64,000 bases of DNA from Octopus vulgaris (Eukaryota): assembly GCA_951406725.2 (NCBI GenBank), contig OX597830.1, positions 69,502,001-69,566,000 of the forward strand. The letters run 5' to 3'. The notes under the pieces are model-generated. The model made no database searches. It worked only from the letters and a program-made list of their open reading frames with translations, and was not told the origin of the DNA. This document shows, piece by piece, positions 56,657-58,980 of the stretch; position 1 is the first letter of the stretch; every line of letters starts with the position of its first letter. The position numbers and the translations under genes were made by a program.

Positions 56657-56982
56657 TACAAGTAAGCTACCATTCTGTTTTCACAGTCTCTTTGATAGAC
56701 TGTGGCAGGCTGGTGTTTTGTCTTATGAAGAAAACACTGCTCTGCTTTAGGTCTTTCAGCAAAATGCTTCATGGCTAGTGTTTTCCTGTTAGAGAGTATG
56801 TTCCCGAATGATGTAGCTTGGTTAATGTTTGCTACACTTTCATTTAACAAAGTATGTATACCATTGTTGCTTTTGTTGTTGTTGTTATTACTGGCGTTAA
56901 ACATATTATCTGGTACACAATGATTTTGGTTTGTATGAAATATTAATTTTTTTTAGAAGTCTCTCTACGGCAGCAGTACTGA

Positions 56983-57326
56983 ATATTAATAGTTATCGCC
57001 AAGCTAATATGGCAGTCCAGAAATATAGGACGAATGCTGCCGTTGATTAGCTCCAAAAGGCCATCGCCTCCAGCTAGCTATGTGACACACAAACCTTAGG
57101 TAAACAATTCTTTGAATAGACGGTCAGTAGTGATGCCTGCTGGGTCGGCTGCTCTGCGTTGATAAAGGGCAAATACCCTGAAACTAGTCTGCAGATGCCT
57201 GACCAGCAAGGGGAAGTGGCTGACCTCCCCTGTTCGAAGGTTATAATGGACACAGGAGCTAATCAACGGTAGCATTCATCCTATATTTCTGGTCTGCCAT
57301 ATTAGCTTGGCGATAACTATTAATAT
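56983..57326 (+). mobile_element. TIR-bounded hammerhead-containing element (family H2)
   Basis: 72-bp TIRs (3 mismatches), TGA direct flanks, central hammerhead fold. Confidence 0.78.
57154..57194 (+). ncRNA. Minimal type I hammerhead ribozyme motif (U3:A8 variant)
   Basis: ctgcg-TTGATAA-AGGG-caaata-CCCT-GAAA-CTAG-TC|tgcag; stems I and II pair, loop III is palindromic; predicted cleavage after 57189. Confidence 0.78.
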
Positions 57327-57718
57327 TGATTTTTTTTTTCTTTTACAGTAATTTTCTTGGATGTTAATTAATTAATTATTATTATTTTTTTTCATTTACT
57401 GAGATGCAGTAGATCTGTGTCAGTGACAAGGCTGCAGTTAGTAAGACAAAAATAACTTTTAACGCCAAATCATAAATATTTAAGTGAAGTTAATAGTCTT
57501 TATGTTTCGAAGGTCTATTATGTATCTTACACACTATAGTTGTTTTCACATTTATTTATTATTTTTTTGTTTAGTAGCTGCTTTGCTTTCTCCGGGGTAA
57601 TCTCTTCCTCCTCCTCCTCCTCCTCCCTCTTTCTCTCTCTTCTTTTTTAACAAGACACTATTTTATTTTTTACTTAGGAGTTACACAGTAATGGAAATAT
57701 TTTTTTAAAAAAACAAAC

Positions 57719-58016
57719 CAGGACTGGCTGTGTGGTAAGTAGCTTGTTTACCAACCGCATGGTTCCGGGTTCAGTCCCACTGCGTGGCACCTTGGGCAAG
57801 TGTCTTCTACTATAGCCTCGGGCCGACCAAAGCCTTGTGAGTGGATTTGGTAGACGGAAACTGAGTCCCTGTTACTTAGCGGTTCGGCAAAAGAGACCGA
57901 TAGAATAAGTACTGGGCTTACAAAGAATAAGTCCCGGGGGTCGATTTGCTCGACTAAAGGCGGTGCTCCGGCATGGCTGCAGTCAAATGACTGAAACTAG
58001 TAAAAGAGTAAAAGAG
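57719..58016 (+). mobile_element. SINE family A with the microsatellite region deleted
   Basis: Head through ggaaactga is joined directly to gtccctgttacttagcgg and the tail. Confidence 0.8.
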
Positions 58017-58980
58017 TATACTGTCTAGCCTCGATGCAATGTAATCATTCCAATAATAGTCTTTATTTGAAATAATATCCAATTTGAAAATTAATTCCTT
58101 CAGTTTCACATGAAAAATATTGAGAATTCTCAGATTGAAATTTTAGAACGCCTGTACGTTGTCAGCTGTGAATTTCGTTTGTTTCTAATTTAAGCATAGG
58201 GCCATCACATTTAAGCAGTGGGTGTTAGTTGATACTAATAACAACAACAACAACCACAAAAACACGACATCAATCACAACAACAATAGTTATAATGGTTT
58301 CAGATTTTGGCACAAGGTCAGTAAGTTCAAGGGAGGGGAGGGTAAGTTGATTACATCAACCCCAGTGTTCAACTGGTACTTATTTTATTGACTTTGAAAG
58401 AATGAAAGGCAAAGTTGACCTTGGAGGAATTTGAACTCAGAATCTAAAGACAGATAAAATACCGCTAAGCATTTTGCCTTCCACATTAACAATTCTGCTC
58501 TCTCATGGCCTTAACCCTTTTGTTACTGTATTTATTTTGAGATGCTCTCTTTACTCTTTACTCTTTACTCTTTTACTTGTTTCAGTAATTTGACTGCTGC
58601 CATGCTGGAGCACCACCTTTAGTCAAGCAAATCGACCCCAGGACTTATTCTTTGTAAGCCTATCACAATTCTATTGGTCTCTTTTGCCAAACCGCTAAGT
58701 TATGATAAGTATCTGACTTTAGCCCATTCAAACGAGTCCACTATACTACCTCTTTTGCTATAGCTACCAGACATATAAAAATTGCCTGCCCCTCCCAGCC
58801 AAAGAAAGGTGTTGGAGCGATCTTCAATATGAATTCAGCTGATAGCTGAAACTGTCCTACACGTGACAAAAAGTGTTCAACATAAACCCCTGGTAGCACT
58901 ACCAGGTGAGGGATTTCTGGAAGTTATCCAAAGGCCCAGGCCTGAAGGTTCTCCGATGATATAATAATGATAATAATAAT

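Follow-up and report, generated by a model that had tools for sequence, protein, structure and literature searches.

A decayed inverted insertion of a 362-bp hammerhead repeat family in the octopus genome, a likely non-LTR retrozyme with Penelope-type insertion marks

Animal non-LTR retrozymes, as characterized in the open text of PMC7229834 and 10.64898/2026.07.22.740005, are ORF-less tandem units of 150–450 bp (350–390 bp in mussel), with one type I hammerhead ribozyme per unit, a G+C content below 50%, long target-site duplications (TSDs) when present, self-paired unit RNA and Penelope-like elements (PLEs) in the same genome. Hammerhead processing and circularisation have been shown for retrozymes of coral, mussel and axolotl (PMC7229834), and it has been proposed that retrozymes are non-autonomous PLEs (10.64898/2026.07.22.740005). 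Endonuclease-bearing PLEs leave 5'-truncated tandem and inverted arms with a tail at one end, insert into AT-rich or microsatellite targets with TSDs of about 10 bp, and carry a hammerhead upstream of two ends (PMC3846280; PMC8557442; PMC11167929, as far as their open text goes). An inverted terminal repeat (pLTR) tailed at one end, with an 8–10-bp TSD, is set out in PMC3846280, and an inverted pLTR with a one-sided tail also in PMC8557442. In vitro, the PLE protein of Anolis cuts and extends both strands, starting from two sites on the RNA, one at either boundary of the tail (PMC11167929).

Our window is a 64,000-nt stretch of the Octopus vulgaris genome (contig OX597830.1, positions 69,502,001–69,566,000). 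Positions 56983–57326 had been taken in a preliminary description for a mini-element with 72-bp terminal inverted repeats (TIRs), flanked by TGA on both sides and carrying a hammerhead. We consider it probable that the stretch is instead an inverted insertion, now decayed, from an ORF-less 362-bp hammerhead family, likely a non-LTR retrozyme copied in trans by the reverse transcriptase (RT) and GIY-YIG protein of a PLE; the mirror-image ends likely arose as a side effect of insertion rather than as true transposon ends. The inverted arms are real (56982–57054 and 57255–57327, 73 nt, 96% complementary). Relatives of this copy have 50–59 bp more in common past one end of 56983–57326, and the copy is a single insertion spanning about 56937–57326. 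Its left arm lies on the minus strand at 56983–57096 (unit positions 249–362) and its right arm on the plus strand at 57097–57326 (unit positions about 86–362), both reading outward. The right arm ends at site E1, which is unit position 362. On the left the copy continues into a minus-strand tail at 56937–56982 (unit positions about 1–53, with a 10-bp deletion), whose outer end is site E2, position 59 of the next unit, 59 nt from E1.

The apparent TIR halves at 56983–57054 and 57255–57326 are the overlap of the two arms, and the inner edge of the right half is a deletion breakpoint. The arms appear 72 bp long because 41 bp were lost after 57254 in the right arm; they would otherwise match over about 114 bp, and the family has no set TIR length. 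TGA does occur on both sides, but the left TGA is the start of the internal tail (its first three bases, with one change), which extends to about 56937; it is therefore not a target duplication. No convincing TSD was found around the window copy, where the best direct repeat is 7 nt; a decayed TSD, TGATTTT on both sides, was considered and rejected. The copy falls in the oldest U3:A8 subfamily, and 41 bp and 10 bp of it have since been lost. No PLE protein match was found within the window. At 57874–58700 the window also holds a larger inverted pair (arms 57874–58012 and 58564–58700, 91–96% in pieces), which consists of two oppositely oriented copies of the window's most abundant repeat.

A similarity search of the 2.8-Gb genome with the window element gave 2,857 candidates, the best 40 of which were scored. 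The repeat unit of the family is 362 bp, non-coding and found in head-to-tail arrays, the longest with a period of 362 and 5.5 copies at 99% match, so that the departure from the tandem retrozyme arrangement claimed earlier does not hold. Genome-wide, exact matches number 2,382 for the tail pattern, 777 for the U3:A8 core with a 6-nt loop and 1,168 for a younger core with a 5-nt loop. Some arms exceed one unit in length. One natural 362-bp unit folds far more strongly than its shuffles (z −5.9), in line with the self-paired unit RNA of animal retrozymes. At L221 (2408–3028), a 202-bp tandem repeat starts directly where the 5.5-unit array has its inner end.

Within sampled loci, examined with 1.5-kb flanks, no ORF is joined to the unit, as expected of the non-autonomous family that had been proposed. 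The sequence downstream of the tail at 103 distinct places is the next 362-bp unit in 54, a simple repeat in 37 and unrelated flank in 12; shared non-unit sequence follows at none of the 103. The preliminary description had also suggested a search for long copies sharing the repeat and encoding RT and GIY-YIG domains, and no such frame between two unit copies was linked to the unit in the sampled loci. These data bear on whether the unit is the pLTR of an as yet unfound autonomous PLE, its copies being ordinary 5'-truncated inverted ends. That reading is consistent with insertion marks that are PLE-like in every case, with genome searches that scored best candidates only and took loci with 1.5 kb of flank, and with RT fragments near L029, L100, L118, L141 and L160. 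It sits poorly with ORF-less head-to-tail arrays and with the absence of any shared continuation after the tail. The nearby RT fragments are not in a continuous pLTR–ORF–pLTR order, save a fused fragment at L118, and a PLE protein match occurs in only one of 30 tail-selected loci, L241, which is the same locus as L118. We therefore judge an autonomous PLE terminal repeat unlikely, and favour an ORF-less family mobilised in trans. At L118 (830–2025), a fragment of unit positions 226–325 is joined to part of a PLE reading frame, in an inverted pair around another retrozyme copy; the fusion is possibly a template switch or the re-copying of a nested insertion.

Insertion architecture was surveyed at 90 loci, 6 of which were left out as repeats of the same insertion. 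The 84 distinct insertions comprise 59 outward-inverted, 25 single-direction and 0 inward copies, with spans of 218–1288 bp; in the subset chosen solely on the hammerhead core, 19 of 27 are inverted. RNA-sense 3' ends fall at E1 or E2 in 113 of 143 cases (65 and 48, respectively) and at neither site in 30. Where both ends lie at fixed sites, 34 of 36 insertions pair one E1 with one E2 (p = 2e-8 against an expectation of 50%), as in the window copy. Eleven further insertions read by eye are all E1/E2 and none E2/E2, although 9 of the 11 were selected for the tail, so that E1/E1 was impossible among those 9. Inner junctions vary between insertions, with a hot spot at unit positions of about 98 and 225, an internal inverted repeat.

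The flanks likewise resemble those of PLE insertions. A simple repeat, mostly (TA)n, adjoins at least one side of 46 of the 59 inverted insertions, and 7 of the 13 without one have a 12–15-nt direct repeat (one mismatch allowed), compared with 5 of 156 mismatched flank pairs that reach at least 10 nt. At the family level the AT-rich or microsatellite targets and the 12–15-bp duplications agree with PLE insertions, whose TSDs are about 10 bp. The three bases after the shared end motif, in 157 cases, are CCA (the tail) in 91, ATA in 39, TCA in 3 and TGA in 1. Together with 3' ends that are fixed with an optional tail, 5' ends that vary and an inverted arm, these are the marks of PLE-type insertion, and they fit the earlier suggestion of a PLE mobiliser that leaves an inverted terminal copy.

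The same survey decides against a captured hammerhead in a cut-and-paste MITE or in a DIRS-like, tyrosine-recombinase element, with 72-bp TIRs of fixed length and a TGA junction. Inverted ends on a short non-coding element are common to both groups and to this family, the window copy shows 73-nt arms with TGA at both originally assigned edges, and many of its close relatives measure about 385 bp between E1 sites. The last class arises because of the junction hot spot and because the matches were chosen for their likeness to the window copy. Constant length, fixed TIRs and a constant short TSD, expected of a MITE, all failed in the survey, as did the fixed inverted terminal repeats and trinucleotide junction of a DIRS-like element. 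Variable arm lengths and flanks had been set beforehand as the refuting outcome, and both do vary across copies: lengths differ, 25 of the 84 insertions have a single arm, truncation is of the retro type, arrays are tandem, the tail is one-sided, the TSDs are long, and the supposedly invariant TGA occurs once in 157. The reading of the stretch as a ribozyme-bearing MITE is wrong, and we see next to no probability for either a MITE or a DIRS-like element.

Another account accepts the same family and partner but derives the inverted arm from fold-back self-priming of one nascent strand, an idea put forward in PMC3846280, and not from two target-primed starts. The junction hot spot at about 98/225, being an internal inverted repeat, is compatible with fold-back, as is the closeness of the two arms of one insertion, which share subfamily marks wherever both contain the hammerhead and have a median distance of 0.044, against 0.092 for random copies. 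The shared marks are consistent with a single circular or multimeric template and also with two RNAs from one wave. Under fold-back, the copied arm can contain nothing beyond what its template arm has. In a BLAST-based comparison of arm depths (two rows with rough depths), the tail-less arm is deeper than the tailed arm in 22 of the 34 E1/E2 insertions, window copy included, and each arm of these has sequence absent from the other; fold-back cannot explain them. We regard it as highly improbable and retain two target-primed starts as the preferred explanation.

The hammerhead motif itself is present on the plus strand of the window as first described. It occupies 57138–57208, including an extended stem I, with its core at 57159–57189 (U3 at 57159, A8 at 57164), stem II at 57166–57169/57176–57179, GAAA at 57180–57183, the palindrome ACUAGU at 57183–57188 and a predicted cut after C57189. 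Both the minimum-free-energy (MFE) and the centroid fold contain stems I and II, with a z of −2.9 for 57138–57210. The motif had been called minimal, but its stem Ia (6 bp), stem II (4 bp) and stem III (2 bp, with a palindromic loop), together with a bulge and additional stems, are those of a canonical metazoan type I hammerhead by the definitions in PMC4209133. A GC hairpin placed at 57209–57231 is absent from the plus-strand MFE fold of 57120–57240, in which part of it pairs with 57122–57128. A search of the window against Rfam gave no match at the gathering level, and at E ≤ 10 no hammerhead was reported around the window element, where the preliminary description had suggested this search, or in a C3:G8 sister copy. 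A scan of 13 loci had no hammerhead among the matches listed (150 of 221), which were dominated by microsatellites. Motif, fold and covariation agree on one type I hammerhead per unit. At six other genome loci (L181–L186), RF00163 matches with a canonical core were found, none from the 362-bp family; three have a long stem II, and they look like further families. A metagenome scan with the hammerhead core pattern gave 0 matches.

Exact core matches genome-wide number 777 for U3:A8, 24 for C3:A8, 12 for U3:G8 and 8 for C3:G8. The C3:G8 copies inspected form a diverged sister lineage, about 0.42–0.45 apart from the main family with the same layout and ends, so the 3:8 pair has changed on both sides between lineages. 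Some of the 24 C3:A8 matches are arm-junction artefacts and several lie in homologous context; they may represent decay, junction artefacts or an intermediate. In 100 listed youngest cores, position 7 varies between U, A and C while A8 is constant. Across 26 rows, 16 of 23 pairs have changed on both sides and 86% of cells are paired, compared with 32–49% with slid partners; the rows were hand-picked across subfamilies and reflect few inherited, non-independent events, and the shuffle figures are therefore not probabilities. Of 142 hammerhead rows, 18 with a non-homologous 5' side were left out. These compensatory changes across lineages show, at the level of sequence, a ribozyme motif under selection, as had been argued, with cleavage as a prediction. 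The sister lineage was seen at L141–L144, L148, L152, L166, L161 and L167; it is older, with a C3:G8 core and some C3:A8, and its tail is about 80–85% like that of the main family, more alike than the hammerhead region.

The palindromic loop has changed in steps. ACUAGU is found in the sister lineage and in the oldest copies, of the window type, followed by ACAUGU and, in the youngest, ACGCGU, and this order is nested on a midpoint-rooted tree of 47 of the 105 rows, in which the sister lineage served as outgroup. Among the 100 youngest cores listed, 94 keep ACGCGU and the other 6 have CpG-type changes. In computed folds each palindrome self-pairs and does not cross-pair, the two that were tested giving −4.6 to −4.8 kcal/mol for self-pairing. 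A U3-A8 compensatory pair with a palindromic stem III is known from the minimal hammerheads of Cercyon PLEs of Schistosoma mansoni, with U3-A8 in about 1,300 Schistosoma PLE motifs (PMC4209133, main text). The octopus family differs from Cercyon, as described there, in its canonical stems (6-bp stem Ia, 4-bp stem II), its non-coding tandem unit and its possession of both C3:G8 and U3:A8 lineages.

A search of the genome for GIY-YIG domains recovered a young 4.7-kb PLE family with a 781-aa RT and GIY-YIG frame, the candidate partner. Its hammerhead has the U3:A8 core of the 362-bp family, with the palindrome ACAUGU. It ends at two sites about 36 nt apart that run into (TA)n, and in 50 loci 9 of 9 inverted copies were E1/E2, with a query that favoured tail-bearing copies. 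E2 terminates in CTATTAT in both families. The unit and the PLE terminal repeat have no alignable similarity (local score 31, shuffle mean 41), so the case for this partner is made by insertion marks common to both and not by descent; homology of the unit to the pLTR of the L109 PLE was not found, the common features being the hammerhead core, the palindrome and the CTATTAT end. In BLAST of 30 GIY-YIG loci, a unit copy adjoined only one. By comparison, 21 Xenopus retrozyme cases with PLE pLTR homology are given in the parts of 10.64898/2026.07.22.740005 available, while the 362-bp family has none to the PLE examined. The tail is 59 nt in the family against about 36 nt in this PLE, and 30–40 nt in the published PLEs above, from which the family further differs in having no ORF and a full stem I in place of the minimal form.

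The PLE protein P0001 has a CxxxxCxxC motif before its GIY-YIG endonuclease. A CX2-5CxxC motif before a C-terminal GIY-YIG is described as a mark of Neptune/Nematis in the accessible text of PMC8557442, and by this motif the candidate partner would be assigned to the Neptune/Nematis type. A protein search with P0001 gave 843 relatives, none of which bore a PLE clade name. At L109 (318–4021; also L094 and L095), two frames overlap in the young PLE, 479 aa upstream and 781 aa; the 479-aa frame has no clear Pfam family and contains a 138-bp internal repeat, and the two-frame layout differs from the single ORF usual for PLEs.

On the preferred reading, multimeric unit transcripts would be cut by paired hammerheads joined via the 6-nt palindrome, and the cut unit RNAs may circularise. 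The PLE endonuclease would make a staggered cut in AT-rich DNA, and both freed 3' ends would prime cDNA synthesis by reverse transcription, from E1 on one strand and from E2 on the other. These cDNAs would halt at variable points and join over short matches, often at the internal inverted repeat (98/225). Two starts at E1 and E2 followed by joining of the cDNAs would yield a pseudo-TIR with a one-sided tail. The processing steps may not hold, because 8 of 9 Xenopus retrozyme dimers were without in vitro cleavage according to the open part of 10.64898/2026.07.22.740005, and because hammerhead cleavage in the Anolis PLE needed the protein and was dispensable for insertion, as reported in the part of PMC11167929 consulted.

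A more speculative extension, which we hold to be doubtful as a whole, has two parts. Since a retrozyme without a PLE-alignable repeat obeys the E1/E2 rule, all inverted PLE-type insertions might be built asymmetrically from two primers, with a short structured tail being read; and the palindrome swaps might form a self-recognition code that restricts dimerisation to members of one wave, ACAUGU being common to the middle wave and the PLE. Folding the tails of the retrozyme family, of its sister lineage and of the PLE revealed no stable structure in common (z 0.2, 0.6, −2.2 and 0.8).

Judged from its sequence, the family has the features of a non-LTR retrozyme and lacks those of a MITE, a DIRS-like element or an autonomous PLE. 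Its tandem unit, single hammerhead, low G+C, long TSDs and co-resident PLEs agree with the retrozymes introduced above; its U3:A8 core sets it apart, and its circular RNA is putative. Most of its insertions are inverted and two-armed with a one-sided tail, an arrangement with no counterpart for retrozymes in the text obtained of PMC7229834 and 10.64898/2026.07.22.740005, where the word "inverted" occurs 0 times and once, respectively. For PLEs, the U3:A8 core, inverted ends and the one-sided tail have each been described before. In the passages of open papers that were searched, the 362-bp family, a counted E1/E2 pairing and the palindrome succession were not found.

The family offers a natural data set on the origin of inverted ends and tails in PLEs, and on whether animal retrozymes ride PLE proteins: young retrozyme copies coexist with intact-frame PLE copies, and target choice and near-strict E1/E2 pairing are common to both. 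It turns the literature's remark that the tail is often at one end into a countable E1/E2 rule, and the octopus system supplies a 362-nt template and a 781-aa protein. In these hammerheads, three successive palindromes and a change between C3:G8 and U3:A8 are good natural evidence of selection on dimer pairing and on the 3:8 pair.

Unit words were present in 14 sequencing runs guessed to be RNA. Contigs from these runs cover the unit, and some span the predicted cut site, in data blind to ends, strand, circles and level. In run X12, A-to-G differences cluster along an inverted arm in one low-depth contig at L022 (1448–1607); RNA editing of a fold-back or another genomic copy could account for them.
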